Shown here piece by piece: positions 3,734-59,426 of a stretch of 64,000 bases of DNA. The notes below the pieces were generated by a model that did not search any database, was not told the DNA's origin, and saw nothing but the letters and a program-made list of their open reading frames with translations. The translations under genes and the position numbers were made by a program. Position 1 is the first letter of the stretch; every line of letters begins with the position of its first letter. Source of the stretch: Candidatus Parcubacteria bacterium. Its GTDB lineage: Bacteria > Patescibacteriota > Minisyncoccia > UBA6257 > HR35. The DNA lies in assembly GCA_026004535.1 (NCBI GenBank), contig BPJI01000001.1:324523-388522 (forward strand), read 5' to 3'.

Positions 3734-4456
3734 CTATTTAAAATATATTTTCTTGCTGATTCTTAGATCTATTCTTGTGCCTGGAAAATTTTTAGTTAGA
3801 AAGATATGGAGTTTTTTAATTTGTTCTTCAATATCTTTGGCTGGATCAAAAAGAAATTCTCGATTCTGACTATCAATAACACCGATATCAAAATTTGAGT
3901 AAATTTTAATTTCTGTTAAAATTAAGGGTTTCCAGTTGGCATATTCAAATAAAAGAGAAAGTAAATTTTTAATCTCTGGATTTAAAAGAGTATTATTTTC
4001 AATTGGTAAATGAGAATAGATTAATAAATAATGACGTGCGACGTTCTGATATTGATTATTAGTTATTAATATTTTGGACGTCGCACGTCTTATATTTCTC
4101 AGCTCTCCAGGTATAATTATTTCAGCATAATTATCTAAATAAAAACATTTATCTTTATCACAAATTTGAGCAATAATTTGAGAACTTTTAATGTTTAAAA
4201 ATAATTTTTGTTCGAAAATATTACTTCTAATTTCTATTTTTTTGATTTCAGGAAAATCAATCATAATTTTTTTTAAGCTGGAGATAATTTCATAAGGAGA
4301 ATGATTTTGCCAATAAGGTCTTAAATAATTTTCAAAGCTTTCAGGCTCGATTACAATTTCTTTAAATTCAAAAAATAAAACAAAATAAAATATTATAAAA
4401 ACAAAAAGCAATGATAAAATAATCTTATAAGGAAACTCTTTTTTTCTCCTCCTCAT
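3734..4456 (-). CDS. hypothetical membrane-anchored protein
   Basis: 240-aa ORF with an N-terminal hydrophobic segment. Carries an in-frame copy of the GACGT-N3-ACGTC hairpin repeat pair (about 4040-4085). Confidence 0.5.
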   Translation of the reverse strand: MRRRKKEFPYKIILSLLFVFIIFYFVLFFEFKEIVIEPESFENYLRPYWQNHSPYEIISSLKKIMIDFPEIKKIEIRSNIFEQKLFLNIKSSQIIAQICDKDKCFYLDNYAEIIIPGELRNIRRATSKILITNNQYQNVARHYLLIYSHLPIENNTLLNPEIKNLLSLLFEYANWKPLILTEIKIYSNFDIGVIDSQNREFLFDPAKDIEEQIKKLHIFLTKNFPGTRIDLRISKKIYFK

Positions 4457-4485
4457 TTTTTAATTATAACCATATTATAATAATT

Positions 4486-4522
4486 TAAGACGTACGACGT
4501 CTTAAAGACGTACGACGTCTTA
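4486..4522. repeat. tandem pair of the palindromic hairpin repeat TAAGACGTACGACGTCTTA
   Basis: Seen directly: 8-bp inverted arms TAAGACGT/ACGTCTTA around ACG, two overlapping copies, just upstream of serS. Confidence 0.7.
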
Positions 4523-4529
4523 ATTTAAA

Positions 4530-5777
4530 ATGATAGATTTAAAGGATTTGCTAAGAAATCCTGAGATGTATAAACAGAATATGAAAGAAAGAAATTTTGA
4601 TCCGTCATTAGTTGATGAAATTATTGAAATTAAAACACAAATCAATTCTTTGATTAAAGATAAAGATGATATCCGTTCATTCATTAATAAGTATTCAAAA
4701 ACGAAACCCGATGAAAAGATAATTGAAGAAATAAAAAATAAAAAAGAAAAATTAAAAACAATTGAAGCTGAGATCAAAAAACTTGAAAATGAATTAGAAG
4801 AAAGATTAGAATTAGTGCCAAATCTTAAAGCCCCAGAAGTTCCAGTTGGTGAAGATGAAACAGAAAATGTTGTAATTAAAACTTGGGGTGAAATTTCTCA
4901 ATTCAATTTTCAGCCCAAAGATCATGTTGAACTTGGTAAAATTTATGATTTGATTGATATTGAAAGAGCAGGCAAAGTTACTGGTTCGAGATTTTATTAT
5001 TTAAAGAACGAAGCAGTTTTATTAGAATTTGCCTTAATAAATTTTGTTTATGATATTTCACTCAAACAAGGTTTTATTCCAATCATTCCTCCTGTTTTTA
5101 TTAAAGAAAAATATTATCGAGGCATGGGAAGGTTAAATAAAGTTCAAAAAGAAGAAAGATATTATTTGCCTCAAGATGATTTATATTTAGTTGGTAGTGC
5201 CGAACATACGGTTGGTCCTTATTTTGCTGAAGAAATTTTGAATGAAAAAGATTTACCCAAAAGGTTTTTGGGTTTTTCAACATGTTTTCGTCGGGAAGCA
5301 GGGAGCTACGGCAAAGATGTTCGGGGAATCTTAAGAACCCATCAATTTGACAAAGTTGAAATGTTTAGTTTTACTTTACCTGAAAAATCAGAAGAAGAGC
5401 ATCAATTTTTACTTTCGCTTCAAGAAAAAATAATGCAAGAACTAAAATTACCTTATCGAGTTGTTTTGATTTGTTCAGGTGATCTTGGTTTTACTGATTA
5501 TAAACAATATGATATTGAGACTTGGTTTCCTGGTCAAAATAAATACCGCGAAACCCATTCTTGCTCGAATACGACTGATTTTCAAAGTCGAGGGATAAAT
5601 GCTCGTTTTCGTCGCCAAAATGGAAAAATTGAATATCTTCATATGTTAAATGCAACTGCTATTGCTATTGGCAGAATTTTAATTGCTATTTTCGAAAATT
5701 ATCAAAGAAAAAACTACATTGAAATTCCTGAAGTTTTGATAAAATATACTGGCTTTGAAAAAATTATGTTAAAATAA
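4530..5777 (+). CDS. serS: seryl-tRNA synthetase
   Basis: N-terminal coiled-coil arm; class II motifs FSTCFRREAGSYGKDVRGILRTHQFDKVE and …ETHSCSNTTDFQSRG…. Confidence 0.9.
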   Translation: MIDLKDLLRNPEMYKQNMKERNFDPSLVDEIIEIKTQINSLIKDKDDIRSFINKYSKTKPDEKIIEEIKNKKEKLKTIEAEIKKLENELEERLELVPNLKAPEVPVGEDETENVVIKTWGEISQFNFQPKDHVELGKIYDLIDIERAGKVTGSRFYYLKNEAVLLEFALINFVYDISLKQGFIPIIPPVFIKEKYYRGMGRLNKVQKEERYYLPQDDLYLVGSAEHTVGPYFAEEILNEKDLPKRFLGFSTCFRREAGSYGKDVRGILRTHQFDKVEMFSFTLPEKSEEEHQFLLSLQEKIMQELKLPYRVVLICSGDLGFTDYKQYDIETWFPGQNKYRETHSCSNTTDFQSRGINARFRRQNGKIEYLHMLNATAIAIGRILIAIFENYQRKNYIEIPEVLIKYTGFEKIMLK

Positions 5778-5781
5778 AATT

Positions 5782-5964
5782 ATGCCCCGAACAACAAAGC
5801 AAAATAAACAATTAGAACTTTTGGTCAGAGAATTGAGAGATTTGAATAGAAATTTAAGAATGTTGATTTTTAATATTCCCGAAGAAAGTTTAAAAGAATA
5901 TAAAAATCGAAAACAAATTATTGAGGCTTTTAATAAAGCAATAAAATTATATCCTCGAAATTAA
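5782..5964 (+). CDS. putative type II antitoxin (partner of the downstream RelE/ParE toxin)
   Basis: 60-aa charged helical protein 1 nt upstream of the RelE-like ORF. Assignment is by position only. Confidence 0.4.
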   Translation: MPRTTKQNKQLELLVRELRDLNRNLRMLIFNIPEESLKEYKNRKQIIEAFNKAIKLYPRN

Positions 5965-5965
5965 A

Positions 5966-6259
5966 ATGTTGATTATAGAAACCGATGATTTTAAAAAAGA
6001 TTTAGATAAGTTGCCTAAATCAATCAAAAGACTTTATCAGAAACAAAAACAGATTTTTGAAACAAATTGGCTTGATCCTCGATTACATGTTAAAAAACTT
6101 AAAGAGTACCACGGTGTTTATTCTTTCAGGATTACAAGATTATATCGTGTTCTTTTCTATTTTAGTGGTGTAAATGTTATCTTTTTGAAAATTAATCCAC
6201 TGATTACACGGATAATATATATTCCACTGATTACACTGATTAATAATAAATCCGCGTAA
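5966..6259 (+). CDS. RelE/ParE-family type II toxin
   Basis: …LHVKKLKEYHGVYSFRITRLYRVLFYF… matches the RelE/ParE core. C-terminal about 20 codons read into the CACGGAT repeat array. Confidence 0.6.
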   Translation: MLIIETDDFKKDLDKLPKSIKRLYQKQKQIFETNWLDPRLHVKKLKEYHGVYSFRITRLYRVLFYFSGVNVIFLKINPLITRIIYIPLITLINNKSA

Positions 6260-6330
6260 ATCCGTGGCCGAAAATTATCCGTGCAAATCCGTGGATAAAG
6301 AATATCAGTGTAAATCCGTGGCAGAAAATT
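6170..6330. repeat. periodic CACGGAT / ATCCGTG repeat array
   Basis: …tacacggataatatat…aaatccgtggccgaaaattatccgtgcaaatccgtggataaag…aaatccgtggcag; about 10-11-bp phasing with opposite orientations in the two halves. Confidence 0.55.
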
Positions 6331-6331
6331 A

Positions 6332-6703
6332 ATGAAAAAATTTCAATTTTTGCCTCATACAGCTGATATTAAAATCAGAGTTTATGGGAAAAACATCGAA
6401 GAAATTATTAATAATTCTTTATTAGCTTTGAGTTCTTATTTAAAACCAAAATTAACAAAACAAAAAATTGAAAGAAAAATTAAACTAAAGGCCGAAACAG
6501 CTGAAGATTTGATTGATTTTCTTTCTCAAGTTTTAGCCCGAATCCATATTGATAAAGCAATCTTTATAAAATTTAAGCAGGGCAAAATTAGGGGTTATAA
6601 ATTCTCAGAACTTTCTAAAGACATTAAAGCCATCACTTATCACCAAACTCAACTAAAAAAAACAAATAACCGCTATATTTTTGATTTTATTATTGATATC
6701 TAA
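6332..6703 (+). CDS. archease
   Basis: N-terminal MKKFQFLPHTADIKIRVYG matches the archease HTAD signature; about 120 aa. Confidence 0.65.
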   Translation: MKKFQFLPHTADIKIRVYGKNIEEIINNSLLALSSYLKPKLTKQKIERKIKLKAETAEDLIDFLSQVLARIHIDKAIFIKFKQGKIRGYKFSELSKDIKAITYHQTQLKKTNNRYIFDFIIDI

Positions 6704-6709
6704 AAAATC

Positions 6710-6728
6710 TAAGACGTACGACGTCTTA
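6710..6728. repeat. palindromic hairpin repeat TAAGACGTACGACGTCTTA
   Basis: Exact copy. Marks the start of the duplicated promoter plus N-terminal cassette (see 9783). Confidence 0.7.
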
Positions 6729-6752
6729 AATTGTAAATGTGGAAAAATATAA

Positions 6753-9219: not shown

Positions 9220-9325
9220 GTTTCAGGGATTAGGGGTTAGCTTTAAGAGCGGAGATCATTTTATTGAGAATTTTCATTATATCTTCTAAAAGTAAATCTA
9301 CTTTAGAGTAATCAAGATCTTTTGT

Positions 9326-9655
9326 TTATTTTAATCTTTTTGCTATTTCTAAATGTGTTTCTAATTCAGCTCCCGAAGCATAAGCAATTCTTAAAAATTG
9401 AATAAAATCTTTTCTTGTTCTTCGCGATCTTCCTTCAGCTATATTGGCCGGGATAGAAACAGCTGCTCTTTTAATTTGACTTACCAATCCATATGTTTCT
9501 TCTTTGGGGAAATATTTGGTTAATTCATAAATTTCCATAACTAATTCAATGGCTTTTTGCCAGACAAGCAGATCTTTATAAGATAGAATTTTTTTATTAC
9601 CAGAGCTTTTTTCATATAATAATTTTACAATATAATTAACCTGACAGCTGACCAC
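9326..9655 (-). CDS. four-helix-bundle protein ('23S rRNA intervening-sequence protein' family), copy 1
   Basis: ILSYKDLLVWQKAIELVMEIYELTKYFPKEETYGLVSQIKRAAVSIPANIAEGRSRRTRKDFIQFLRIAYASGAELETHLEIAKRL. Paralogue of 28995..29378. The N-terminus differs by a 2-nt indel, so there is a possible start or frameshift issue. Confidence 0.6.
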   Translation of the reverse strand: MVSCQVNYIVKLLYEKSSGNKKILSYKDLLVWQKAIELVMEIYELTKYFPKEETYGLVSQIKRAAVSIPANIAEGRSRRTRKDFIQFLRIAYASGAELETHLEIAKRLK

Positions 9656-9674
9656 CTGAAAGCTGACAGCTGAG

Positions 9675-9776
9675 ATGAAAAATCCTGAAGTGGCAAAACT
9701 TTTAAGGATGATGGCAATTTATTTGGAGATGAAAGGAGTTTAGTTTAAACCTCAAGCTTATGAAAAGGCTGCTTAA
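9675..9776 (+). pseudogene. truncated 5' fragment of a DNA polymerase X gene (duplicate of the 29465 start)
   Basis: MKNPEVAKLLRMMAIYLEMKGV*FKPQAYEKAA* is nearly identical to the PolX N-terminus at 29465 and is interrupted by stops. Ends at the palindromic repeat. Confidence 0.6.
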
Positions 9777-9782
9777 AAAATC

Positions 9783-9801
9783 TAAGACGTACGACGTCTT
9801 A
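9783..9801. repeat. palindromic hairpin repeat TAAGACGTACGACGTCTTA
   Basis: Exact copy at the junction between the PolX fragment and the duplicated promoter cassette. Confidence 0.7.
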
Positions 9802-9825
9802 AATTGGGGTTGAGGAAAAGTTGGG

Positions 9826-9865: not shown

Positions 9866-12454
9866 ATGAACAAAAAAATACTTTTATTTACTTTAGTTTT
9901 AGGAGGTTTATTGCTCAGTTTTTTCTTTCTCTCTTTCTTTAAATCTACTTCTGCTCAAGTTTGTCTTCCTCTTAATGGTTATCTTGTTTGGCCAGGAACA
10001 TGGGAATCAGGCAGAATTCCTATGGCTTCAACACAACAATATACCTTATCAAGCTCTCCTTTTTATGTTTCTGGCAATAATGTTGGTTTAGGAACAACCA
10101 ATCCTGTCTATACTTTTCAAGTTAATGGAGATATTTCAGGAACAAGACTTTGTATTGGTAGTGATTGTCGTAATGTTTGGCCTGGTGGAGGAATTGCTGG
10201 TTCTGGTTCAGCTGGTCAAGTAGCTTTTTGGACAGGAACATCAAATATTTCAGGTGACAATGCTCTTTTTTGGGACAATATTAATAAAAGATTAGGAATT
10301 GGAACAATATCACCTCAGACATCTTTGCATGTTGCTGGTAATATCACTGCTAATACTTTTTTAGGTACAATCAATGCAGCTAATATTTCTTCAGGACAAT
10401 TTGGAGCAAATACAGGTGGAGGGAATTATAGTTTTCCTGGCAACGTCGGCATCGGGACGACGAATCCGACTGGAAAGCTACACGTCTATAATGGAAGTAC
10501 AGAATTAATGAAAGTTGTATCTGATGTGGATGTAGTTGGCATCGTGGTAGGACCAGCTATTGGTGGAAGACATTTAATAATTAATGATATTGCTCAAGCA
10601 AGATGGGCATTTGCAACTGGATATTATGATTTATCTATTCAAAATGATTATGGTGGAAGTTGGAATACTAGAATGATAATAACAGAAGACGGCAACGTCG
10701 GCATCGGGACGACGGCGCCCGGGGCGAAGTTGGATGTTGCTGGAAATATAAGCATTAGTGGTGTAGCTGATCTGGGTTTGGATGCAGGTGATGTAGCTGG
10801 CATAGTACCTTGGTATAGAGATATTTTTGCTTTCAAGACCCCAACTAACTTTGAATATTGGGATGGCACATCGTGGGTAGCATTTACTCCTACAAATCCT
10901 CAAGGAATGACTGCATGGGGAGCTGGATCTACAATCATACCGGCAGCAAATAAAGATAAGTTCAGGTTTATAATAGATACTGGTAATAGCGTTGGGTTAA
11001 GGGCAAACTTTCTTGTAGTTAGGGCTAGTGATTGTTGCCCGGGAAGTACTTATAAGGTTGAAGTTGAAGGTAGTAACGATCTAAGCACATGGAGTGGTGT
11101 TTTAACAAGTGGAAGCGGTTTTATGGGAGGCGCTCCAGACGCCCCAACAGTAATACCATTTTCAGGGGGCAACTATAGATATGCTAGGATAACCTTTACC
11201 AAACTTTCAGGTACAAGCACAAATGCATTTAGTATTTATGAATTGCATTTATTTAACAATTGGTCACCAGCTTATGCCAATCTTCCAATAAAATGGGATA
11301 CTAATGGCAACGTCGGCATCGGGACGACGGCGCCTTCTTATAAATTACATGTTCAAGGGGGAGATATTTATGCTTCCTCTTATGTAATAGGAGGGTTAGG
11401 ATTATGTATTGGGTATGATTGTCGAACTTCATGGCCACAAGGATTAACTGGAAGTGGAAGCTCTAACGCAATTGCTGTTTGGACAGGAAGTACAAGTTTG
11501 GGATCATCTATTATTTCTCAATCAGCTGGTAGTGTTAATATAGGTGGATCACTTAGTGTTTCAGGTTCTATTTCAGGTAACAGCGTTAGTGTTTCAGGTT
11601 CTGTTTCAGGTAACAGTGTTAGTGGTAATACATTATGTATTGGGTCTGATTGTCGAACTTCATGGCCACAAGGATTAACTGGGGGTGGAAGCTCTAACGC
11701 AATTGCTGTTTGGACAGGAAGTACAAGTTTGGGATCATCTATTATTTCTCAATCAGCTGGTAGTGTTAATATAGGTGGATCACTTAGTGTTTCAGGTAGT
11801 GGTATTTATACTTCAGGATCTGTTAGTGCATCGGGCGCTGTTAGTGGCAGTATGTTATGTATTGGGTCTGATTGTCGAACTTCATGGCCATCAGGATCAG
11901 GAGGATTAACTGGAAGTGGAAGCTCTACTGCAATTGCTGTTTGGACAGGAAGTACAAGTTTGGGATCATCTATTATTTCTCAATCAGCTGGTAGTGTTAA
12001 TATAGGTGGATCACTTAGTGTTTCAGGTTCTATTTCAGGTAACAGCGTTAGTGTTTCAGGTTCTGTTTCAGGTAACAGTGTTAGTGGTAATACATTATGT
12101 ATTGGGTCTGATTGTCGAACTTCATGGCCATCAGGATCAGGAGGATTAACTGGAAGTGGAAGCTCTAGTGCAATTGCTGTTTGGACAGGAAGTACAAGTT
12201 TGGGATCATCTATTATTTCTCAATCAGCTGGTAGTGTTAATATAAATGGGTCCCTTAGTGTTTCAAATTCTATTTCAGGTGGATCTATATGTATTGGATC
12301 TTCTTGCCGAAGTTCATGGCCCGTAGGATGTAGTTGGCAGGGTGTTAGTTGTAGTAATTATATTTATTTTAGTAACGGCAACGCTAGAGTGTGTATAGAG
12401 TGTCTTAATGGTGTTGTTACTAGTTTTTATATGGAGGGGGGAAGTCTGCCGTAG
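9866..12454 (+). CDS. large exported surface protein, paralogue of 6832 with an identical first about 190 aa; Ser/Gly-rich tandem repeats and a Cys-rich C-terminus
   Basis: The first about 570 nt are identical to 6832. Three copies of the GC-rich motif GGCAACGTCGGCATCGGGACGAC. Four to five tandem copies of about 234 bp (LCIGSDCRTSWP…SLSVSGSISGNSVSVSG). Ends …FYMEGGSLP*, with a frameshifted repeat of the tail downstream. Confidence 0.7.
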   Translation: MNKKILLFTLVLGGLLLSFFFLSFFKSTSAQVCLPLNGYLVWPGTWESGRIPMASTQQYTLSSSPFYVSGNNVGLGTTNPVYTFQVNGDISGTRLCIGSDCRNVWPGGGIAGSGSAGQVAFWTGTSNISGDNALFWDNINKRLGIGTISPQTSLHVAGNITANTFLGTINAANISSGQFGANTGGGNYSFPGNVGIGTTNPTGKLHVYNGSTELMKVVSDVDVVGIVVGPAIGGRHLIINDIAQARWAFATGYYDLSIQNDYGGSWNTRMIITEDGNVGIGTTAPGAKLDVAGNISISGVADLGLDAGDVAGIVPWYRDIFAFKTPTNFEYWDGTSWVAFTPTNPQGMTAWGAGSTIIPAANKDKFRFIIDTGNSVGLRANFLVVRASDCCPGSTYKVEVEGSNDLSTWSGVLTSGSGFMGGAPDAPTVIPFSGGNYRYARITFTKLSGTSTNAFSIYELHLFNNWSPAYANLPIKWDTNGNVGIGTTAPSYKLHVQGGDIYASSYVIGGLGLCIGYDCRTSWPQGLTGSGSSNAIAVWTGSTSLGSSIISQSAGSVNIGGSLSVSGSISGNSVSVSGSVSGNSVSGNTLCIGSDCRTSWPQGLTGGGSSNAIAVWTGSTSLGSSIISQSAGSVNIGGSLSVSGSGIYTSGSVSASGAVSGSMLCIGSDCRTSWPSGSGGLTGSGSSTAIAVWTGSTSLGSSIISQSAGSVNIGGSLSVSGSISGNSVSVSGSVSGNSVSGNTLCIGSDCRTSWPSGSGGLTGSGSSSAIAVWTGSTSLGSSIISQSAGSVNINGSLSVSNSISGGSICIGSSCRSSWPVGCSWQGVSCSNYIYFSNGNARVCIECLNGVVTSFYMEGGSLP
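11395..12330. repeat. about 234-bp near-identical tandem repeats (x about 4.5) inside the 9866 gene
   Basis: ttatgtattgggtctgattgtcgaacttcatggcca… recurs at about 11400, 11637, 11866, 12100 and 12290. Confidence 0.8.
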
Positions 12455-12862
12455 GATGTAATTGGTATGGTGATCTGTGTAGTGTTGATCTTCATATTGA
12501 TACTAATCCTAATGGTCCCGGTGGTGGTTTTAATATTAGAACATGTTTAGTTTGTAACCTTGGTCAAATTACGGATATTTTTATGGAGGGGGGAAGTGAA
12601 AATTAATATTTAAATAAATTATTAAAATCATAAAAAATTTATATTTATAAAAAATCGCGATCTTTCTTTATTGTTTATAAGTTTCAAAAAATTTTAAAAC
12701 AGCAATTTAATTAATTCTTTTTTATAAGATAAATTTTAATATTTTATTGTGATTTTTAAACAAATTTTCGGATTATTGGTTTTGTATATTATAATTATTT
12801 TTGTGAAAAATTTTTATTATTATTTTTTTGTTATTTATTATAATTTTGTTTTTTAGGTTAAA

Positions 12863-13297
12863 ATGAAAGCTTTTACTTTAACCGAAGTTTTAATTGTTTT
12901 TATTATTATTGGTTTTATTATTGGTTTTTCTTCTTATATTCATTCAAAATTTTCTCGAAGCACCTTAATAATTGATGAATCAGCCAGTTTAGTTGTTAAT
13001 GTTTTAAATTTAGCCAGACAGAAAGCAATTATTGGTGAAGAAAATGCTAATTGGGGAGTTTGGTTGATTAATACTTCAACTCAAGATTATTTTTATTTAT
13101 TTAGAGGAACAACGAGTAATTTAAAAGAAAGATATGAACTGCCTCAACAAGTGAGTTTTTTTGATTTTAGTGATAGGACAATAATTTTTCAAAAATTAAC
13201 AGGTGAAACAATCTCAACCACAATTAAGATTGGCTTTTCGCCAAGTTTTTATAAATTAATTAGGGTTTCAACTTCGGGGAGTATTATTGTTGAATAA
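12863..13297 (+). CDS. type IV pilin / pseudopilin (prepilin-type N-terminal cleavage-methylation domain)
   Basis: MKAFTLTEVLIVFIIIGFIIG: class III signal peptide with Glu at the fifth position of the presumed mature N-terminus (FTLTE). Confidence 0.7.
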   Translation: MKAFTLTEVLIVFIIIGFIIGFSSYIHSKFSRSTLIIDESASLVVNVLNLARQKAIIGEENANWGVWLINTSTQDYFYLFRGTTSNLKERYELPQQVSFFDFSDRTIIFQKLTGETISTTIKIGFSPSFYKLIRVSTSGSIIVE

Positions 13298-13299
13298 AT

Positions 13300-13660
13300 C
13301 GCTGAGAGCATTATTTTACCCGGATAAATACCGGATTATTTTACCCGGATAACCAACCGGATAATGTTTACCCGGATGAATACCGGATATTAAAATATCT
13401 ACCCGGATAGTCAACCTGATAGATCACCCGGATTATTACTGTATAAATCTGGTTTAAATCCGGGTAGTTATATCAGGTTAATATCCGGGGGATTATATCT
13501 GATTTAAATCCAGGTAACTTATCCGGTCATAATCCGGGTATTTGTATCCGCTTTGGATCAGGGTAGCTTATCCGGTTTAAATCCGGGTGCTATTATCCGG
13601 TTAATATCCGGGTAATTATATTTTCTCCTGCTGTCCGCGGTGAATAATTCTTCCGTGTTA
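13300..13660. repeat. CCGGAT-type periodic palindromic element (about 21-bp phasing), about 360 bp
   Basis: Left half is …tacccggataaataccggattattttacccggataacc…. Right half carries the reverse complements (…atccgggta…atccggt…). Right terminus is CTGCTGTCCGCGGT. Confidence 0.7.
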
Positions 13661-13671
13661 TAATTTTAATT

Positions 13672-14307
13672 ATGTTTTATTTACAAAAGGTTTCCCAATT
13701 TTTGCAATATGACATTTATTTTTTTATTTCTCTTTTCTTTTTAGTTATCACCACAATTTTAAAATTTAAGACGTACGACGTCTTAAAATTGATTAGGATA
13801 TTGATGGTAGTAACGATTTTAGTCTTTATTTTATGGTCAGGCTTTTTAAGTTATAAACAATATTTGGTTTGGAAAGATCACCCTTTATCTAAATATCTTT
13901 TGCCCCCTTATCAAGAAATAAATTATTATCTAAATTATGCCTATTTTCATTTTTGGCGAGATTTTTTTTATCGTTTAATTGGTGTTTTGATTATTTTTTT
14001 ACTGATGAAATTTATAAGTTTTGTTTTTAAAAGAGATGTTTTTTATGAAGAAGAAAAAATTTTTGTTCCTTATCTTTCTTTATTTTTCTTTTTTCCTTAC
14101 AATCTAATGTTTTTCTTTTTAGGCCTTTTTATGTTAAACTTAATAATAGTAATTTCAGCTTTCAGGGGTCAGGGATCAGGTGTCAAGTTTCAGGTGTCAG
14201 AGACGAGGTTTTCTTTTAAAGATTATTGGATTTGGCTGGCTTGGTTGATATTAATTCTAGCACCACTAATTTTTAATAATTATAAGTTTTTACAATATAA
14301 ACCTTAA
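13672..14307 (+). CDS. hypothetical polytopic membrane protein (in the pilus gene cluster)
   Basis: 211 aa with several hydrophobic helices. Carries an in-frame palindromic repeat at 13767-13785. The C-terminus reads through a GGGTCAGG-type periodic repeat. Confidence 0.45.
   Translation: MFYLQKVSQFLQYDIYFFISLFFLVITTILKFKTYDVLKLIRILMVVTILVFILWSGFLSYKQYLVWKDHPLSKYLLPPYQEINYYLNYAYFHFWRDFFYRLIGVLIIFLLMKFISFVFKRDVFYEEEKIFVPYLSLFFFFPYNLMFFFLGLFMLNLIIVISAFRGQGSGVKFQVSETRFSFKDYWIWLAWLILILAPLIFNNYKFLQYKP
13767..13785. repeat. palindromic hairpin repeat TAAGACGTACGACGTCTTA inside a CDS
   Basis: Exact copy, translated in-frame (…FKTYDVLKL…). Confidence 0.7.
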
Positions 14308-25758: not shown

Positions 25759-25762
25759 CTTC

Positions 25763-25959: not shown

Positions 25960-26199
25960 TATTATATCTAATTATAACTTAAAAGTTTTTTAGTTAAATA
26001 TTTTCAAGTTAAAGAGCTCACAAGAACATAAAGTAAGACATACGATGTCTTACTATTAATAGATTAGTAAATTATAAATTATATTTTATAATAATAATAA
26101 TTTTATAATAATAATAAATTAAATAATAATGAATCAGGAAAAGTCGAGGTTAATAAATTTAATAAATATTTCGAACATAAGATGTCCGAATATTAAAAG

Positions 26200-28440: not shown

Positions 28441-28447
28441 GTACATA

Positions 28448-36129: not shown

Positions 36130-36250
36130 ACATATTGACGTGCGATGTCAAAATATTAATATCTGGATGTGCGACGTCCCGATATTAACAAGATAATATT
36201 TAGGACGTCGCACATCCGTATATTAAAACATCGCACGTCCCGATATTAAT
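36130..36250. repeat. array of about 5 alternating-orientation GACGTGCGATGTC/GGACGTCGCACATCC hairpin repeats separated by ATATTAA
   Basis: tattgacgtgcgatgtcaaaatattaatatctggatgtgcgacgtcccgatattaacaagataatatttaggacgtcgcacatccgtatattaaaacatcgcacgtcccgatattaa. Confidence 0.7.
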
Positions 36251-37075: not shown

Positions 37076-37081
37076 TAAATT

Positions 37082-38290: not shown

Positions 38291-38488
38291 CCACGGATAT
38301 ACACGGATAATAAATAACCACGGATTTACACGGATAACATAAAGGATAGATACGGATACTAATTAATGTTCGTATAAGTTTGTGTATAGTTCGCATAAAG
38401 GGTACGTATAAAACACTATAGCGTCTGAAACGTCCTTTCTGATTTTAGTGACTTTAATGATATATGATTAATAAAAGAATATGTTTTG

Positions 38489-38569: not shown

Positions 38570-38800
38570 GCACACACGCCTACGAGCACCGGCACTCAAC
38601 TTGCTCCAGCGGCAAGTTGGTGCCTCGGTTCTCGGCTCGAAAACTTTGCCATCTGCTAAAGCAGACTGGCAAAGACCGAGCTTTTCGAGCCTCCGAAACG
38701 TGCTCTACGGCGTGGTGCTCGGCAAAATTTTTCGCCGAACTCGCTCGCCAACAAACATGGCATGGCGTGGTGCGAGGTAATATCGGGACATACGATGTCA
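38570..38800. ncRNA. GC-rich (about 58%) highly structured island; candidate unidentified structured RNA
   Basis: Nested perfect helices GGCACTCAACTTGC/GCAAGTTGGTGCC and GGCTCGAAAA…TTTGCCA…CTGCTAAAGCAG…TGGCAAA…TTTTCGAGCC. Three mutually overlapping ORFs on both strands argue against coding. Adjacent to tRNA-Glu. Confidence 0.3.
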
Positions 38801-38906
38801 CGATATTTTTTCTTAATATTTAGACACGCACGTCTTAAATTATACAATAAAACTCACAATTCGTTAACTCGTTAATTAATTAAATTCGTTAATTAATTAA
38901 ATTATA

Positions 38907-44865: not shown

Positions 44866-45744
44866 ATGTATTTATTAGGAGATGTAGGAGGTACAAAAAC
44901 AAGATTGGCAATTATTGATAAAATCTATATAAATTCAAAGCAAGTTTATAGACATCTTAAACAAAATACAAAAATTTTTAACACTCCTCAAAAATATGAA
45001 GATTTTTTAGAATTAATTAAAAATTATATTCTGCGTAGTTCAGCGTCAGTTCTGCGTAGTTCTGCATTAAAAATTTGTTTTGGATTTGCTGGTCTTTTCG
45101 ATCAAAAGAAAGAAAAATTAATTTACTCTCCAAATTTAAAAGATTATGTTGGCAGAAATTTAAAAAAAGATTTAGAAAAGATTTTACATCCGCGTTTATC
45201 CGTGGTACTCGAGAATGATGCTGCTTTAGCTGGTTTAGGAGAAGCATATTATGGAGCAGGAAAGAATTTTAATGTTTTTGGTTATATTACTTTAAGCACA
45301 GGAGTTGGAGGAGCTAAAATTGTTAATAAAAAAATTGATGATAATGTTTTTGGTTTTGAGCCAGGACATTTATTTATTTTAATTCAAAGTAAGACATACG
45401 ATGTCTTACCATTTGAAGTTGAAGAGATTGTTGGTGGTAAAAGTTTAGAAAGAATTTTTAATAAAAAACCGGAAGAAATAAAAGATAAAAAATTATGGGA
45501 TGATCTGAGTAAAATTTTAGCAATATTTTTAGTGAATGTTTCAATTTTTTGGTCTGTTGATAAAATTATTTTAGGTGGTGGATTAACGAAAAGTTTAAAT
45601 TTTAAAAAATTAAATTTTTATATTAATGAATTTAATCCCTTACCAGTTAAAATTAAAGTGATAAAATCAAAATTAGAAGAATTTTCAGGATTATACGGAG
45701 GATTGAGTTATTTAAGAAATACGGGGCATAGCGCAATTGGTTAG
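44866..45744 (+). CDS. ROK-family sugar kinase (glucokinase-like)
   Basis: MYLLGDVGGTKTRLAII…, …LENDAALAGLGEAYYGAG…. In-frame CGCAGAACT-type and palindromic repeat insertions. The last 8 codons run into a tRNA-derived repeat. Confidence 0.65.
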   Translation: MYLLGDVGGTKTRLAIIDKIYINSKQVYRHLKQNTKIFNTPQKYEDFLELIKNYILRSSASVLRSSALKICFGFAGLFDQKKEKLIYSPNLKDYVGRNLKKDLEKILHPRLSVVLENDAALAGLGEAYYGAGKNFNVFGYITLSTGVGGAKIVNKKIDDNVFGFEPGHLFILIQSKTYDVLPFEVEEIVGGKSLERIFNKKPEEIKDKKLWDDLSKILAIFLVNVSIFWSVDKIILGGGLTKSLNFKKLNFYINEFNPLPVKIKVIKSKLEEFSGLYGGLSYLRNTGHSAIG

Positions 45745-50660: not shown

Positions 50661-53600
50661 TGAAACACTCTTTTAAAAGTGTCATTTAATATTTTTTGAT
50701 AATCTTTCTTACCTTCAGCAACTAAATCCATTGCCTCTTCTAATTTTATAGTAAATTCTTCAGCAACCAAATCTTTGTGTTTTTTAATCAAATAATTATA
50801 AATCTTTTCTCCTAAAGAAACGGGAATTAAATATCCCGAACGATTGAGAACATATTTTCTATCAATTAAAGTTTGAATAATTGTTGAATAAGTTGATGGT
50901 CTACCTAAGCCTCTTTTTTTCATTTCATCAATAAGCTCACCCTGGGTATAATGATATTCTTTTGGTACTTTTTTAATTTTTAAATTCTCAACTTTAAATT
51001 TATCTTCAATTAAATTAAAAATTTTTATATTTTTAAAGAATTGAAGATGATTGCCTTCAGTAATTTCAACAAAAGCCTCTTGTGTTTGCTTATATAAAAC
51101 AAATTCATGGTTACTTGTTTTAAGGATTATTTCAATTTCTGTTTTTTTGCCTTTGCTTGGTTTCATCTGAGAAGCGATAAATCTATTAAAGATCAATCCG
51201 TAAAGCTGTAAGTGTTTTTTAGTCAAATTTTTTTGTTCTAAAATCATACTTTCAATAAGATCTTGGACATCTAACGGTTTTGTCGGTCTTATTCCTTCAT
51301 GAGTACCAATTTCTCCCCAAGCTCGTTTATAAAACAAATCTTTTAAATTCTTTCTTTCTAAATATTCATAGGCAACATTACGACCGAATTCAGAAACGAA
51401 AACAGAATCAGTTCGATGATAAGTAATTAATCCTTGTTCAAAAAGGTCCTGAGCTAATCTCATTGTTATTGGAGCTTCAAATCTAAAAAAACTATTAGCA
51501 TCTTTTAAAAGATTACTTGTATCATAAGGAGGTAGGGGATTAATTGTTTCTTCTTGGGTTCTGTTAAATTTTATTTCAATTTCTAATTCTTGGTTTTTAA
51601 AGGCTGTTTTTATTTCTTTAATAATGTCTTCATTTTCTAAGTAAAAATAAAGAGGAGTAAGTTTTTGGGAATCATTGGGTTGATTTATGCTAACATTAAC
51701 TAAATAATGCTTATTTTTAATTCTTTTTTCTTTTTCTAAAATCCAACCTAAGACTGGAGTCTGAACTCTGCCGGCAGAAAGATTGAGATTTTTAAAATGT
51801 TGTTGAATTTCTTCACTTAATTTAAAACCAATCCAACGATCAGAAATTCTTCTTAAAAGTTGAGCCTTGACTAAATTAACATCAACATCTCTTGGTTCTT
51901 TTATTTTTTTAATGAATTCAGTTTTGGTAATTTCATGAAGCTCTATTCGTTTGATGTTTTGATTATAGGGATAAAGATAGGCAAATAAATCAAAAGCTAT
52001 TTTTTCGCCTTCGGTATCAGGATCAGTGGCTAAATAAATTTTATCAACCTCAAAAGCAATTTTTTGTAAATTTTTTATTAATTCTTGTTTACTAAGGAAA
52101 TTTTGAGAATTACAAACAGGACATTCATTTTCGTTTAAACTTAAGTGGCGCTTACAATTCTGACAAATTTTTAAGGGTTGAAAAACAGGCACAAATTCCC
52201 CTTTTTCTTTTTTGACACCATAATAACCATCTTGATGAGTTAAATCAGTAAAGTGCCCTAAAGTAGCGCAAATATTTAAATGTAGATTTCCTAAGGAAAC
52301 CTCATAAAAAATAATATTAGCCTTAATTCTCCTAGCTGGCTTGCCAAAAAAGTTAGCGATCGTTTTTGCTTTTGTCGGCGATTCAACTAAAACCAAAGCA
52401 GTTTCAATTGGATCTTTAAGAGTAAACTCTTCGCCAGTTAAGACCCTTTCAACAATTTTGCGATCTTTATCAATTTCTTCTAAAATTTTTGTTAAATTAA
52501 TTTCACTAGCATTTTTAAAATTTGCTTCATAGCCTAAGATTTTCAATTTATCTTTTAAATGATTTAAAACTTTTTCATTTTCAGCTAAAATTAAAGCTAA
52601 TCCTTTGGTAAGACCCAGAGGAAAAAGTCGCGAAGTTCTACCTGATGCTTGAATATAGCCACGAGGATCAGAAACAACTAAATAATAATTTAAATTATTA
52701 CCCGGATCATCACTAGATATATTACCCGGATGATTACCGGATAGATGGTTGTTTTCCTTGGAATTTATATTAGTTTTTACTCCATTATTGTTCGCATTGG
52801 TTCGCGTATAGTTCGCATCAGTCTGCGTCATTAGAGTTATTCTTGGATGTTTTTTAATTTTTTCAATAATTTCTTCATCTTTTAAAAATTCTTCAAAAGT
52901 TCTTTTTATTGGTTCGATTTTTTCCTTTAAATTTTTATCAGCCAGAATTGCTTCTTCTTTGAGAAAAGATATTTTTTTAAGAAAATTCAAATTTCTTTCA
53001 ATTAACGATTTTTCATCGACAGTTTCTCTTAATGTTAGGCCTAAAAGAAAAAGATGTAAAGGAGAATAAGATACTTTTAATGGAATCTTAAATTTTGGCA
53101 CACCCAAAAACAAGGCATATCTTACTTTTTGGGGTAAATCAATTCCTCGAGTTAAGGGATTTCTAATATTACTAAAGCCGACAACAACTTGAATTTCATT
53201 TTCTAAAAAAGCTTTTTGATTTTTGGTATTAAATTTTTCATACGAAACAGCATTTATGCTATTTTCTTTTAAAAAATCAATATAATTATTTAAATCTTCT
53301 TTACGAAAATCATCATTTAAAAAAACAAAACCACCAGGACCTAATTTTTTTAGCCAATAGATTGATCTTTTGATTAACGCGATTTTTTGCGAACTATCGG
53401 AAGGAGCGGAAACGAACGCAGAACTATCGGAATGAGCGGAAGAATTGTTTCCGTTTGTTCCGTTTATAATTTCATACACTTCTTCAATGTTTCTTAAATA
53501 AGTTGTTGCTGAGCCAATTTCAAATCCTAAAAGTTCTCGAAAAAGGGCAATTTTTTTTGTTTTTGGAGTTAAAGTGGCTGAAGCAGCAATAATAAGACCC

Positions 53601-54355
53601 TTCTCATCTTTGTTAATATCCATAACTTCAATTGCAGCATAATCTTCTCTATTTTTGGCTTTTCTTTTTTTGTCAATAATTTGGATTGCTCTTTGGATTT
53701 CTTCATCTTTGAATTTAATTAATTTCAAAACTTTATCAATATTTTTTGGTTGTCTGATTAAAGAATCGGCGTCATCAACAAAAACCAAATCAAAATTTTT
53801 AGGAATAATGTCAAAATTTTTATGAAGAAAGTTGGCCGTAGTAAGCAAAATATCAAAATCTTCATTTTTTAATAATTCTTTATCTTCTTTTTCTTTAATG
53901 ATTAAAATTTTTTTATCAGATTTTATATTTTTTAATTTTTTCTCAATCTCACGCAATAAAATTTTTGAAGGGACTAAATAATAAACTTTGCCTGGAAGAA
54001 AATGAGAAATAATGTTACCAAAAGTTGTTTTACCAATTCCGGTAGGAGCAATTATGGAAAAAGATTCTCTTTTTAAGACTCTTTTTGCCCAATAAAGCTG
54101 AAGTCGAAGTGGTTGATGCCCAGTATTTTCTTTAAAAAAATTTATGAATTCTTTTAATTTCTGTAAAACTATGTAATCTTCATTAAAATTCTCCAAGTCC
54201 TCTTTAAGATCGAGATTCTCAGTTATCTTAAATAGGGTTTTTTTAAATCTTTCATAATCTTTATTACACAAGCCATAATTATAGATTTCCTCAAAATTAG
54301 CATCATTTCTATCTATCGGACAAATTTCTAAATAGCGAACGTTTAATTTTTCCAT
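50657..54355 (-). CDS. rgy: reverse gyrase (N-terminal helicase-like domain fused to a type IA topoisomerase)
   Basis: …LQLYWAKRVLKRESFSIIAPTGIGKTTFG…, …DLVFVDDAD…, …ALVLVESPTKAKTIANFF… (TOPRIM), Zn finger CQNCKRH…CPVC. 1232 aa. In-frame repeat insertions at about 52690-52830 and 53390-53460. Confidence 0.8.
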   Translation of the reverse strand: MEKLNVRYLEICPIDRNDANFEEIYNYGLCNKDYERFKKTLFKITENLDLKEDLENFNEDYIVLQKLKEFINFFKENTGHQPLRLQLYWAKRVLKRESFSIIAPTGIGKTTFGNIISHFLPGKVYYLVPSKILLREIEKKLKNIKSDKKILIIKEKEDKELLKNEDFDILLTTANFLHKNFDIIPKNFDLVFVDDADSLIRQPKNIDKVLKLIKFKDEEIQRAIQIIDKKRKAKNREDYAAIEVMDINKDEKGLIIAASATLTPKTKKIALFRELLGFEIGSATTYLRNIEEVYEIINGTNGNNSSAHSDSSAFVSAPSDSSQKIALIKRSIYWLKKLGPGGFVFLNDDFRKEDLNNYIDFLKENSINAVSYEKFNTKNQKAFLENEIQVVVGFSNIRNPLTRGIDLPQKVRYALFLGVPKFKIPLKVSYSPLHLFLLGLTLRETVDEKSLIERNLNFLKKISFLKEEAILADKNLKEKIEPIKRTFEEFLKDEEIIEKIKKHPRITLMTQTDANYTRTNANNNGVKTNINSKENNHLSGNHPGNISSDDPGNNLNYYLVVSDPRGYIQASGRTSRLFPLGLTKGLALILAENEKVLNHLKDKLKILGYEANFKNASEINLTKILEEIDKDRKIVERVLTGEEFTLKDPIETALVLVESPTKAKTIANFFGKPARRIKANIIFYEVSLGNLHLNICATLGHFTDLTHQDGYYGVKKEKGEFVPVFQPLKICQNCKRHLSLNENECPVCNSQNFLSKQELIKNLQKIAFEVDKIYLATDPDTEGEKIAFDLFAYLYPYNQNIKRIELHEITKTEFIKKIKEPRDVDVNLVKAQLLRRISDRWIGFKLSEEIQQHFKNLNLSAGRVQTPVLGWILEKEKRIKNKHYLVNVSINQPNDSQKLTPLYFYLENEDIIKEIKTAFKNQELEIEIKFNRTQEETINPLPPYDTSNLLKDANSFFRFEAPITMRLAQDLFEQGLITYHRTDSVFVSEFGRNVAYEYLERKNLKDLFYKRAWGEIGTHEGIRPTKPLDVQDLIESMILEQKNLTKKHLQLYGLIFNRFIASQMKPSKGKKTEIEIILKTSNHEFVLYKQTQEAFVEITEGNHLQFFKNIKIFNLIEDKFKVENLKIKKVPKEYHYTQGELIDEMKKRGLGRPSTYSTIIQTLIDRKYVLNRSGYLIPVSLGEKIYNYLIKKHKDLVAEEFTIKLEEAMDLVAEGKKDYQKILNDTFKRVFQ

Positions 54356-57345: not shown

Positions 57346-57465
57346 CTCATTCAGCTTTACAGCTTCCTAGCTTCACAGCTTATCAGCTTCAAAAAATTAT
57401 AATATAATTATTATATCATAGAAGCTTTAAAGCTATGAAGCTTGGAAGCTGATAAGCTATTTTTT

Positions 57466-57536
57466 GTCCCCATAGCTTAATGGAAGAGCACAGCCCTGCG
57501 GAGGCTGGGATGGAGGTTCGATTCCTCCTGGGGACA
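57466..57536 (+). tRNA. tRNA-Arg (anticodon GCG)
   Basis: GTCCCCATAGCTTAATGGAAGAGCACAGCCCTGCGGAGGCTGGGATGGAGGTTCGATTCCTCCTGGGGACA. Confidence 0.7.
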
Positions 57537-57788
57537 ATTGAGTAATTAACATTTTTACCATTTTAGTTTGTTCCACATCTTCCCTGTCCGTTTCCTTCTG
57601 TTTAGTATATGTCGGAAGGAGCAGAAGCGGACGCAGAACCATCGGAAGGAGCAGAAGAATTATTTCCGCTTGTTCCGTATCCTTTTCTGTTTATTCCGCA
57701 TTTTCCATGTCCGTTTCCGTTCATTTCGTTTTTTCCGTGTCCGCTTCTGTTCATTTCGCCTTTAAATTTTAGCACAATTTTCCACATC

Positions 57789-57817
57789 TTGACATCATAT
57801 TTTTTTCTATTTATAAT
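57789..57817 (+). promoter_or_regulatory. sigma70-like promoter (TTGACA-17-TATAAT), duplicate of 37048
   Basis: Identical upstream 60 bp to the 37082 gene. Confidence 0.5.
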
Positions 57818-57823
57818 TAAATT

Positions 57824-58144
57824 ATGAATAAAAAAATGAATAAATCCTTCACTTTAGTTGAACTCTTAGTTGTCTTAGCTCTAATAGCTATCTTAGCTAC
57901 TGTCTTAATTGTTGTCATTAAGCCAGCAGATATCTTTAAAAGAGGTAGAGATAGTCAAAGAACTTCAGACCTTAAAAATCTTGAAAAAATATTTGACCTT
58001 ATTCTTTTTGAAACTCAAGGCACCTTTTCTGAACTTCAATATGCTTCTTCAAATGTTGTCTATATCTCTCTTCCTGATACTTCATCAACTTGTGGTCAAT
58101 GGATAAGTCAATTACCACAGCTTCCTTCAGGCTGGTCATATTGA
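57824..58144 (+). CDS. type IV pilin-like module (identical to 37082..37402) ending at the same in-frame TGA
   Basis: 100% identical N-terminal module; TGA at 58142-58144. Confidence 0.7.
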   Translation: MNKKMNKSFTLVELLVVLALIAILATVLIVVIKPADIFKRGRDSQRTSDLKNLEKIFDLILFETQGTFSELQYASSNVVYISLPDTSSTCGQWISQLPQLPSGWSY

Positions 58145-58972
58145 TGCTCAGCAACTCCAACAAATATTGATGGTACTGGCTGGATTCCTATTCCTTTTAA
58201 TCAATTTTCAAGCATTAATCTTTCTAGACTTTTCATTGATCCAATCAATAGACCTCCATATTACTATGCATTTGTTGCTGGAGGAAGTTATGAGTTAACA
58301 GCAGCTTTAGAAGTTAAGACGAATAAAGGAGATGGGTCAATTTCTGCTAATGATGGGGGAGATGATGATTATATTTATGAAAAAGGAACTAATTTAAATT
58401 TAACTCCTTTAGTTGTTCAAGGTAGACTTCTCACAAATTCTATTTACGCTGTTAGTGGTAGTTGTGATAACTCTACTTATTGTGGTTATATGGATAATCA
58501 TAGTGAAGCTGATGCTATTAGAAATTTTCCAGCCAACATCTGTAAAAAATATGTTGATAAATTATATTGGGGTTCAGTGTGTGATAATACAAACCCTGAA
58601 AGTGGAGTTAGGAATTATTTTTATTCACGTTTTAGATTTTTGTTTGTTCCTGATGTAAGTGGAACATGGTATTTTGCTGTTGATAGTAATGATGGAGCGG
58701 AATTAATATTAAATAAAGATGATTCTGATAACGACCACACAAAACACACTTTAATTGCTTCATGGTATGGTGTGCATGGTTGGTGTAATTGTCAAAATGC
58801 AAGTGGCACGATTGATATGATTGCAGGTCAAGGATATTGGTTTGATTATATTCAAGAAGAATGGAGCGGAGTTGAAGCGGCCGTTTTATGGGTAAAAAGG
58901 CCAGGAGATGTTTGGAAAGTTTTAAGTGTTACTAATTTTCCTAATCAAATATTTGCAAGGCCTGCATATTAG
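58145..58972 (+). other. in-frame stop-free continuation after the TGA: PA14/GLEYA-like carbohydrate-binding domain
   Basis: Same frame, 276 codons with no stop. …VSGTWYFAVDSNDGAELILNKDD… resembles PA14. Confidence 0.45.
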
Positions 58973-59426
58973 TATAAAAATACAAAATAGCTCATCAGCT
59001 TTATAGCTTCCAAGCTTTTTTAGCTTACCATTTTTTTAGTTTTATAGAAAACATAAAGGTACATATAAAATGCTATAGCATCTAAAACATCCCTACACAT
59101 AAAAAGACAAAAGTCTACTGCTACGTAGCAATAGAGAATTGAACCAGTTTTTATTTCTACTATTTAAATACGATCGTATTAAGTTAGGAGAATTAATAAA
59201 TATAATGACGTGCGATATCCAGATGTTGATTCATCATCGAATATTTGGGACATCGCAGGTCTTAAATTATTTTCCGTATCATCTTCCTTTATTCCGTTTT
59301 TTTCGTATTTATTTCAGTTTGTTCCATATCTTCCATTTTCATTTCTCTCTGTTTGGCTGAGAAATTGACATTTTTTCCAGATTCTAGATTTTTGTTTTTT
59401 AGAAAGCTTTCAGGATAATTAAATTA

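Follow-up and report, generated by a model that had tools for sequence, protein, structure and literature searches.

A dispersed palindromic hairpin repeat in intergenic and in-frame positions of a Candidatus Parcubacteria genome

Repeat units in the window

The window analysed here is a stretch of 64,000 nt of contig BPJI01000001.1 (assembly GCA_026004535.1, positions 324,523 to 388,522) from the metagenome-assembled genome 'Candidatus Parcubacteria bacterium KatS3mg096', a hot-spring member of the Candidate Phyla Radiation (CPR; Patescibacteria) with a genome in the 0.56-Mb size class (roughly a 0.6-Mb CPR genome). The feature under study is a short palindromic repeat with the common core GAC[GA]T-N3-A[CT]GTC, of which 18 units at 11 loci were found (Table 1). 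CPR genomes are usually portrayed as streamlined, with few repeats and little mobile DNA. The window (~31% GC content) carries housekeeping genes, type IV pilus genes, several small toxin-antitoxin genes and genes for proteins of 23S rRNA intervening sequences (23S_rRNA_IVP genes), as well as a 16S rRNA gene (unlinked) and nine tRNA genes. The ROK protein in the window is 100% identical to KatS3mg096_379, and the open reading frame (ORF) 3734-4456 corresponds to KatS3mg096_335. A reverse gyrase gene (50657-54355, - strand), encoding a helicase and topoisomerase IA fusion, is also present; such an enzyme marks this CPR bacterium as (hyper)thermophilic, and the gene content fits a thermophile.

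The common core with at most one mismatch occurs at 17 sites, and the eighteenth unit is a 12-nt variant (38823-38834); looser thresholds bring in noise only. In 100 dinucleotide-preserving shuffles, the 19-mer with up to three mismatches gave 0.00 matches and GACGTNNNACGTC gave 0.01, and hence the repeat is real. The 19-mer TAAGACGTACGACGTCTTA is found exactly at 4486-4504, 6710-6728, 9783-9801 and 13767-13785; a fifth copy (4504-4522) has one mismatch and overlaps the copy at 4486, and all five have the same 13-nt core. A variant with A/T in the core is the 21-mer GTAAGACATACGATGTCTTAC, identical at 26033-26053 and 45389-45409. The two identical 33-nt modules (Table 1), the two identical 21-mers and the four exact 19-mers lie in unrelated contexts, which points to recent proliferation of the family.

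A preliminary description of the window had proposed a dispersed hairpin repeat resembling repetitive extragenic palindromic (REP) sequences, and this is borne out, both by the over-representation of the repeat and by its occurrence as singlets and inverted doublets, as in REPs and in the REP doublets known as REPINs. Its four exact 19-mer positions hold, except that the second copy of the pair at 4486-4522 is the one with a mismatch. Both of its A/T-variant sites exist as well; the variant is a 21-mer, and the coordinates given for it were off by about 10 and 3 nt. Each of its arrays (4028-4095, 36132-36249, 38779-38842 and 59202-59267) is real and consists of an inverted doublet or a nested pair of doublets. 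Overall, its observations were partly confirmed, with coordinates right within about 10 nt, and its interpretation was partly supported.

For comparison, units were oriented by their central triplet. The basic unit is a 13-nt core, GAC[G/A]T-RCG-A[C/T]GTC, with flanks that are variable yet complementary, and two types are distinguished. S units have self-complementary flanks and are self-folding singlets of 19-29 nt; most read TTTAAGACGT-ACG-ACGTCTTAAA, and those at 38787 and 26174 have flanks AATATnnn...nnnATATT. C units are asymmetric 25-mers (TAAGACGTGCGAYGTCCnrATATTA) and occur only as inverted doublets, i.e. at 4028-4095, 59202-59267 and 38779-38842, and as two nested doublets at 36132-36249. 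Units in the window start with TAAGAC, GTAAGAC or ATAATGAC. Alone, S units fold at -8 to -11 kcal/mol at 37 °C, the degenerate unit at 26165-26194 only weakly, and the doublets form single long hairpins of -13.5 to -65 kcal/mol (z scores of about -3 to -11.3). At 70 °C, the largest hairpin retains about -24 kcal/mol and the singlets are marginal, at -2 to -3 kcal/mol.

In an alignment of 15 S-type units from several genomes, 87.8% of the stem cells were paired, vs 70.7% in shuffles, and eight of the 12 stem pairs were altered on both sides. The core was invariant and the flanks covaried; since the alignment includes units found by exact core search, the invariance of the core is partly built in. 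All eight units with an ACG loop have the ACG triplet on the + strand, which is likely the leading strand, given a GC skew that is positive nearly throughout the window. An asymmetry of G·T vs A·C pairs was considered as evidence for action at the RNA level and was discarded; the wobble excess is due to the asymmetric unit and reverses on the partner arm. Rfam searches of the window at gathering threshold returned rRNA and tRNA only, and in permissive scans the long hairpin gave only sub-threshold matches to generic microRNA-precursor (long-hairpin) families.

Table 1. Repeat units and associated duplicated segments in the 64-kb window (fold: predicted free energy in kcal/mol, followed by z score)
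Feature	Position	Strand	Fold	Context
Inverted C-unit doublet	4028..4095		-33.5 (+), -22.3 (-); z -8.8, -5.7 (RNA fold)	Cores 4033-4045 and 4077-4089; 68-nt hairpin in frame in gene 3734-4456 (-)
Tandem S-unit doublet	4486..4522	+	-20.7; z -5.1	1-nt overlap; 8 nt upstream of serS start codon (4530)
33-nt module TAAAAAATC-TAAGACGTACGACGTCTTA-AATTG	6700..6732	+		S unit 6710-6728; starts inside archease stop codon (6701-6703)
Identical 33-nt module	9773..9805	+		S unit 9783-9801; starts exactly where duplicated polX 5' fragment ends
S unit	13767..13785	+		In frame in membrane-protein gene 13672-14307; K-T-Y-D-V-L in loop between transmembrane helices TM1 and TM2
S unit, GACAT/ATGTC subtype GTAAGACATACGATGTCTTAC	26033..26053	+	-11.0; z -4.95	Intergenic, between tRNA-Met (-) and surface-protein-like gene 26200 (+)
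Degenerate unit AATATTTCG-AACATAAGATGTC-CGAATATT	26165..26194	+	-5.7; z -2.15	ATATT flanks; ends 5 nt ahead of ATG at 26200
Four units, two nested inverted doublets	36132..36249		-58.7 (+), -64.8 (-); z -11.3, -10.6	Units 36137, 36166 / 36204, 36227; ATATTAA spacers; between rplK and rsmI-like methylase gene, ends 3 nt ahead of ATG at 36253
ATATT-flanked unit and inverted 12-nt variant	38779..38842			Core 38787-38799, variant 38823-38834; adjoins CGTTAA motif array and AbiEii toxin gene (38907-39527, -)
S unit, 21/21 nt identical to 26033-26053	45389..45409	+		In frame in ROK kinase gene 44866-45744; (S)KTYDVL(P)
Inverted C-unit doublet	59202..59267		-24.3, -20.0; z -4.2, -3.5	Cores 59207-59219 and 59249-59261; intergenic, upstream of dnaB (59427)
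100% identical tract	6792..~7395 = 9826..~10430	+		Promoter and ~190 codons of two surface-protein paralogues
Duplicated segment	9252..9775			~81% identical to 29017-29565; 23S_rRNA_IVP gene (-) and first ~30 polX codons

Copies inside genes and comparison with relatives

Three of the 11 loci lie in frame within conserved genes (3734-4456, 13672-14307 and 44866-45744), all of which stay open, and each copy sits at a site that varies among homologues. The earlier proposal of in-frame copies within ORFs is thus confirmed by homologue alignments for these three genes.

In gene 3734-4456, whose product is a conserved Parcubacteria protein, the doublet accounts for ~20 additional residues (IRRATSKILITNNQYQNVARH) at a hypervariable position. 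The composite is missing in most homologues, which carry a short linker instead, and another lineage (P0122-P0125, locus L016) has a different GC-rich palindrome at the same site of the orthologue. An AlphaFold model of the product has a mean pLDDT (predicted local distance difference test) of 75.8, with values mostly >70; residues 122-140, i.e. the element-encoded peptide, form the sole internal stretch (of at least three residues) with pLDDT <50.

Homologues of the membrane-protein gene 13672-14307 share its N-terminal region, TM1 included; where they have a longer basic linker, the gene in the window has a TM1-TM2 loop with the unit, shorter by 3-6 residues. A contig from read set DRR290133 is 100% identical at the locus of this unit. 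The orthologue in relative L018 has AATATTTGGACGT-CCG-ACGTCCAAATATT in frame at another site. In an identical public contig (P0191, L019) the gene call starts at Met45, just downstream of the unit, and homologues put the true start at 13672; judged from these alignments, the repeat appears to have misled gene calling at 13672-13804. A 79% similarity between 4439-4506 and 13720-13787 was set aside as T-rich coding or low-complexity sequence, the part from 13720 encoding a conserved transmembrane helix.

The site in the ROK kinase corresponds to a loop that differs among relatives, reading SKTYNVLP, NKAYNILP or NKTNKILP or showing a 5-residue gap. A decayed form, AAGGCATACAATATCTTA, is present in the relative L020 (89% identical), and a relative with 60% protein identity (L013) has an AT-rich palindrome, AAAACATACAATGTTTT, at this position. 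The match of the ROK copy to the intergenic copy at 26033 extends to rare G/C wobble choices. Large lineage-specific in-frame inserts at several sites were also observed in the ROK homologues P0002, P0003, P0004, P0010, P0024 and P0026; the insert in L015 (locus at 10001-10957) is encoded by AACGGAA/TTCCGTT inverted-half repeat DNA, of the type of the TTCCG arrays at 57538-57770 and 59273-59340 in the window.

Filled and empty sites can be compared at two intergenic positions. The spacer between the divergent starts of gene 3734-4456 and serS is 73 nt long and holds two units; the same spacer in L016, L017 and L018 is 14-24 nt long and has none. The archease reading frame stops at an identical residue position in all relatives, and a unit comes after it only in this genome.

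Three units were found in L016 and one, the in-frame copy mentioned above, in L018 (both ~91% 16S identity); the core is common, and the flanks differ but are complementary. No unit was found in ~80 kb from HR35, KatS3mg094 and BPJH01, or in the 3-kb contig of L020, the closest relative. Contig L004 (BPGX01000023) was assigned to the Bacteroidia bin KatS3mg027 but matches 25171-26436 at 97.6% identity, and is therefore probably a mis-binned Parcubacteria contig; it has the copies from the 26-kb region of the window (with identical flanks of 26033-26053) and two further C units. At 330-1020 of this contig, direct repeats composed of a C unit and a AACTCGTTAA array flank a ~600-bp cassette of small genes on the minus strand, and the combination of unit, CGTTAA array and toxin-antitoxin genes is arranged similarly to that at 38779-38842 in the window. 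Scans for the exact pattern TAAGACRTACGAYGTCTTA gave four stretches in 596 Gb of genomes and six in a metagenome collection, and two scans of viral sequences gave two and four; these counts are at or below chance for the search space, and therefore no homology is claimed, including for the matches in the high-GC contigs L005-L008 and in the Patescibacteria genome JAZJYZ01 (L001/L002). Several of the exact matches are extended palindromes or local repeat families themselves, and neither the genome nor the metagenome collection contains the source genome.

Interpretation and alternative explanations

The units probably constitute a lineage-restricted family of short palindromic interspersed elements, which is or was mobile and which joins the layout of REP/REPIN sequences to the in-gene behaviour of Rickettsia palindromic elements (RPEs). 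An origin by insertion would be supported by the in-gene copies, which, according to homologue alignments and one structure model, lie in tolerant variable loops of three conserved proteins, and by the apparent filled vs empty sites at the serS spacer, the archease end and the composite in gene 3734-4456. The patchy phylogenetic distribution would likewise speak for a mobile family.

As to the mechanism of spread, we infer that copies were added by insertion, possibly by copying between loci, and that a very compact genome would retain only copies located in short spacers between genes, or copies in tolerant protein loops that leave the reading frame intact. The consistent orientation of the units and their design, i.e. 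a hairpin plus a conserved core, suggest that the mobilising activity may act on single-stranded hairpin DNA, as do HUH/Y1 enzymes such as REP-associated tyrosine transposases (RAYTs) and the TnpA of IS200/IS605; template switching would be an alternative to an enzyme of this type, and, no HUH/Y1 enzyme having been seen in the window, the activity could also be extinct. The hairpins would create homology breakpoints and may promote illegitimate joins, e.g. the junction at the polX fragment.

Several points weigh against a mobile family. Across the 64 kb of the window, out of a 556,583-bp contig, and across the loci retrieved from relatives, no Y1/HUH or other transposase was found; Pfam scans of the window, run on ORFs of 80 aa or more and on some shorter ones, gave no PF01797-type or other transposase, no recombinase, no DNA methyltransferase and no Nop-domain/Tas protein. 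No target-site duplication or conserved target was definable among genomes as diverged as those compared, the sample is small, and some copies are not independent. The distance from unit to -35 element at surface-protein genes is similar in two lineages, which looks functional rather than selfish. At the site of the ROK copy, relatives already encode KTY[N/D]VL, and the peptide K-T-Y-x-V-L forces complementarity of five of the seven central stem pairs; given this coding constraint, the copy could be a native quasi-palindrome or the remnant of an old insertion, or could itself have given rise to the 21-mer subtype. The case is ambiguous, and would be read either as an old insertion that was re-homogenised or as the site that seeded the 21-mer subtype.

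REPINs consist of two inverted REPs and are mobilised by a RAYT (PMC3337134, PMC3116915), and RPEs commonly insert in frame (PMC10969869). The family shares with REP/REPIN sequences a short imperfect palindromic unit (~25 nt, in the 20-40 nt class) that is strongly over-represented, the occurrence of singlets plus inverted doublets with a short spacer that form one long hairpin, near-identical copies in unrelated contexts, and units that adjoin other repeat families in mosaics like bacterial interspersed mosaic elements. It has no sequence similarity to any REP family, however, and differs in further respects: REPs have GTAG at the foot of the hairpin, whereas the units lack a GTAG head; REPs come with a single-copy RAYT (a Y1 HUH enzyme), usually REP-flanked, and none is present in the window; REPs are extragenic, whereas three of the 11 loci here are inside coding sequences; the host has a ~0.6-Mb CPR genome, in contrast to the large proteobacterial genomes (Pseudomonas, Enterobacteria) of REPs; and the copy number in the window is modest.

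Like RPEs, the units are palindromic repeats that lie in frame in unrelated housekeeping genes of a reduced genome and leave these genes undisrupted; the added peptide is in a tolerant, surface-like loop (here a low-confidence loop of the model), several repeat families coexist, and no transposase is known. RPEs are longer, however (~100-150 bp, with a conserved peptide per family, vs inserts of 19-68 nt here), and the present family is mostly intergenic, its host belonging to Patescibacteria and not to Rickettsiales; no sequence relation is demonstrated, the two being set apart by length and host and not by alignment. With no GTAG, no RAYT in 64 kb, a location that is not strictly extragenic and no sequence relation to RPEs, the family is assigned to the general kind of short palindromic interspersed elements, and to neither named family. 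This general kind is already known, and no description of such elements in CPR bacteria was found in the searchable literature.

Other known systems were also compared. Miniature inverted-repeat transposable elements and palindrome-associated elements derived from IS200/IS605 are likewise small, non-autonomous and hairpin-forming, and the orientation bias of the units fits single-strand transposition; the doublets have inverted arms, and neither terminal inverted repeats with target-site duplications (not definable in such diverged genomes) nor a parent insertion sequence were seen. Template switching at quasipalindromes resembles the present case in the changes on both sides of stem pairs (G-C to A-T) and in perfected palindromes such as the ROK site, but does not explain identical copies of 19-33 nt at unrelated loci. 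Integron attC, dif and parS sites have motif layouts that presumably do not match. TIGR-Tas systems comprise a tandem repeat/spacer or stem-loop array adjoining a Nop-domain Tas gene (PMC12045711); such an array was rejected, the units being dispersed, with no long tandem array and no Nop-domain protein in the Pfam scans of the window.

For surface-protein genes, an operator function has to be considered, i.e. a DNA-binding dimer, either a transcription factor or a nucleoid protein, would use the palindrome as its operator, contact the GACGT/ACGTC half-sites and control these genes among others. The core is invariant and the flanks vary, the 5-3-5 geometry is like that of known 13-bp palindromic sites such as matS, and all three tail-fibre-like surface-protein genes (6832, 9866 and 26200) have a unit within 170 nt upstream. 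Near-consensus promoters (in the window TTGACA-17-TATAAT, at 6753 and 6792) precede tandem or duplicated surface-protein genes both in the window and in L016. In the window, the palindrome centre is 34 nt upstream of the -35 elements at 6753 and 9826; L016 has two tandem surface-protein paralogues with a palindrome of identical core ~38 nt ahead of the -35 element. As an explanation of the family, an operator is nevertheless unlikely, since three loci are intragenic, one of them a 68-nt doublet through which a conserved protein gains ~20 residues, and since the units directly before the start codons of serS, rsmI and gene 26200 show no consistent promoter geometry. Moreover, the asymmetric central triplet (ACG/GCG) is conserved and consistently oriented, which is unusual for symmetric dimer sites, the doublet and nested-doublet hairpin design would be unnecessary for an operator, and no helix-turn-helix regulator is encoded nearby. 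The regulator binding suggested in the preliminary description is thus possible for the copies upstream of surface-protein promoters only, and cannot explain those inside coding sequences; in a mobile family, some copies may have been co-opted there as upstream insulators or operators of strong promoters, and the similar spacing in two lineages is the strongest point in favour of such a role.

Recombination was examined from a self-comparison of the window, which revealed three dispersed duplications. The tract common to the two surface-protein paralogues begins downstream of the units, which end 64 and 25 nt upstream of its 5' edge within the separate identical 33-nt modules; the interval between module and tract is ~19 nt with only loose similarity, and no unit is present at the 3' edges. 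The homology of the segment 9252-9775 stops exactly at the start of the 33-nt module; the polX 5' fragment therein has an in-frame TAG (9741-9743) in place of CAG in the intact gene (29465-31183), and is a decaying pseudogene piece and not a case of recoding. The third duplication comprises a pilin-like gene (with N-terminal methylation motif) and its promoter (36989-37550 and 57730-58292, 98% identical), with no unit within 750 nt.

It would follow from a recombination reading that a site- or structure-specific recombinase shuffles cassettes (surface-protein 5' modules, toxin-antitoxin and 23S_rRNA_IVP genes) and that the units serve as its sites or hooks, a reading to which we give little credence. 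The exact end of the polX-fragment duplication at a unit module is in its favour, as is the loss of homology among three modules of L016, which occurs 8 nt beyond the palindrome; in both the window and L016, homology ends 5-10 nt or less from the palindrome. Furthermore, the direct repeats of unit plus CGTTAA array in L004 flank a ~600-bp cassette, with the same combination abutting AbiE genes in the window, and three of 12 duplication boundaries are within 65 nt of a unit (~3% per boundary by chance). All three of these boundaries, however, come from one locus. Units are lacking at the HigB cassette (direct repeats 31184-31245 and 31835-31897) and at the pilin duplication, no unit marks the position (about 26436) where the synteny of L004 with the window breaks, and no recombinase gene was found in the window. 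The insertion boundary of a mobile element would produce the same breaks in homology, and the earlier claim of a recombination or mobile-cassette hook is therefore only weakly supported. The two copies said to sit precisely at the boundaries of the surface-protein cassette are near its 5' edge only, and the claim on duplication junctions holds at a single locus, where one module abuts the end of a different duplication (9252-9775).

At the RNA level, the hairpins could be factor-independent terminators or insulators, or stem-loops that stabilise 3' or 5' gene ends in an AT-rich thermophile. The unit at 6710 starts 7 nt past the archease stop codon, the composites at 36132, 38779 and 59202 are downstream of rplK, abiEii and gene 58490-58972, respectively, the long composites stay stable at 70 °C, and a consensus terminator scan flagged 6732-6706 and 4506-4484 on the - strand. 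Such a function is improbable for the family, since no T-run follows any unit on the transcribed (+) strand and good T-runs are antisense only, the singlets reach just -2 to -3 kcal/mol at 70 °C, termination within the three intragenic loci would be harmful, and relatives do without units at the same gene ends; the lack of + strand T-runs and the three loci inside genes led to rejection of canonical intrinsic (Rho-independent) terminators.

That the ACGT-rich palindromes are targets of restriction-modification or of an orphan methyltransferase, as was earlier considered plausible, is suggested by the GACGTC and ACGT palindromes in the core and is highly improbable, given that ACGT is neither avoided nor enriched (53 observed vs 59 expected), that eight of the nine GACGTC sites are inside units, that conservation extends over 19-33 nt, including a non-palindromic centre, far past any recognition site, and that the window has no DNA methyltransferase or restriction gene, its methylases being tRNA or rRNA enzymes only.

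Other repeat families and minor features

The window contains further motif families (CCGGAT, CAGCTT, CACGGAT, CGTTAA and TTCCG) that may follow a shared grammar, made up of two inverted halves, a short core rich in GC and a spacer rich in AT (e.g. ATATTAA). Together, the motif families fill most of the longer intergenic regions, occur in frame in housekeeping genes (ROK, ychF and an FtsQ-like gene), flank small cassettes (toxin-antitoxin and 23S_rRNA_IVP genes) and abut rearrangement joints. The GACGT family may, as a speculative and rather unlikely extension, be one of at least six families with this grammar, spread by an undescribed process of hairpin-element propagation or cassette shuffling in thermophilic Parcubacteria that uses a new enzyme or none (template switching) and that continually remodels ultra-small CPR genomes and protein loops.

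In this thermophilic Parcubacteria genome of the 0.56-Mb class, a REP/REPIN-like family and several sister families would occupy spacers and add peptides to conserved proteins, as RPEs do in Rickettsia. If general, this would explain many lineage-specific insertions in CPR proteins, would affect gene calling (one start is mis-called just downstream of a unit) and would yield markers by which strains can be tracked; one may also ask which enzyme, if there is one, moves hairpin elements in such gene-poor organisms.

Arrays of ACCCGGAT/ACCGGAT with a period of ~12 nt are found at 13298-13620, 28300-28447, 47990-48375, 61483-61721 and 62790-62925; in each array, the second half repeats the first as its reverse complement, and the arrays are among the strongest-folding regions of the window besides RNA genes. 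A CACGGAT array lies in frame in a ychF-like GTPase gene (start ~62964) at 63620-63710 (…TDLHGFNSSTDLHGLNLPTDLGG…), and intergenic arrays of this family are at 38291-38350 and 6250-6331.

CAGCTT/AAGCTG arrays (9220-9325 and 9656-9680; 28930-28995 and 29379-29460; 36076-36125; 57346-57464; 58990-59030; 31284-31315) flank 23S_rRNA_IVP (four-helix-bundle) genes as inverted repeats and are also found without a gene, which suggests a gene-carrying element plus 'empty' versions. In L016, an insertion near position 68-100 splits the 16S rRNA gene (12396-14309), and a 23S_rRNA_IVP gene (13854-14261) lies within this insertion. The HigB/ParE-like toxin-antitoxin cassette (toxin gene 31521-31805) lies between direct repeats of ~62 nt. 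After it comes a 23S_rRNA_IVP pseudogene (~31900-32250), with TAA in frame at the position of a conserved Gln codon.

Two strongly structured GC-rich segments, 2499-2640 and 3441-3580, which adjoin tRNA-Leu and precede a short zinc-finger-like ORF, may represent small RNAs that escaped annotation; Rfam gives no match for them at gathering threshold.

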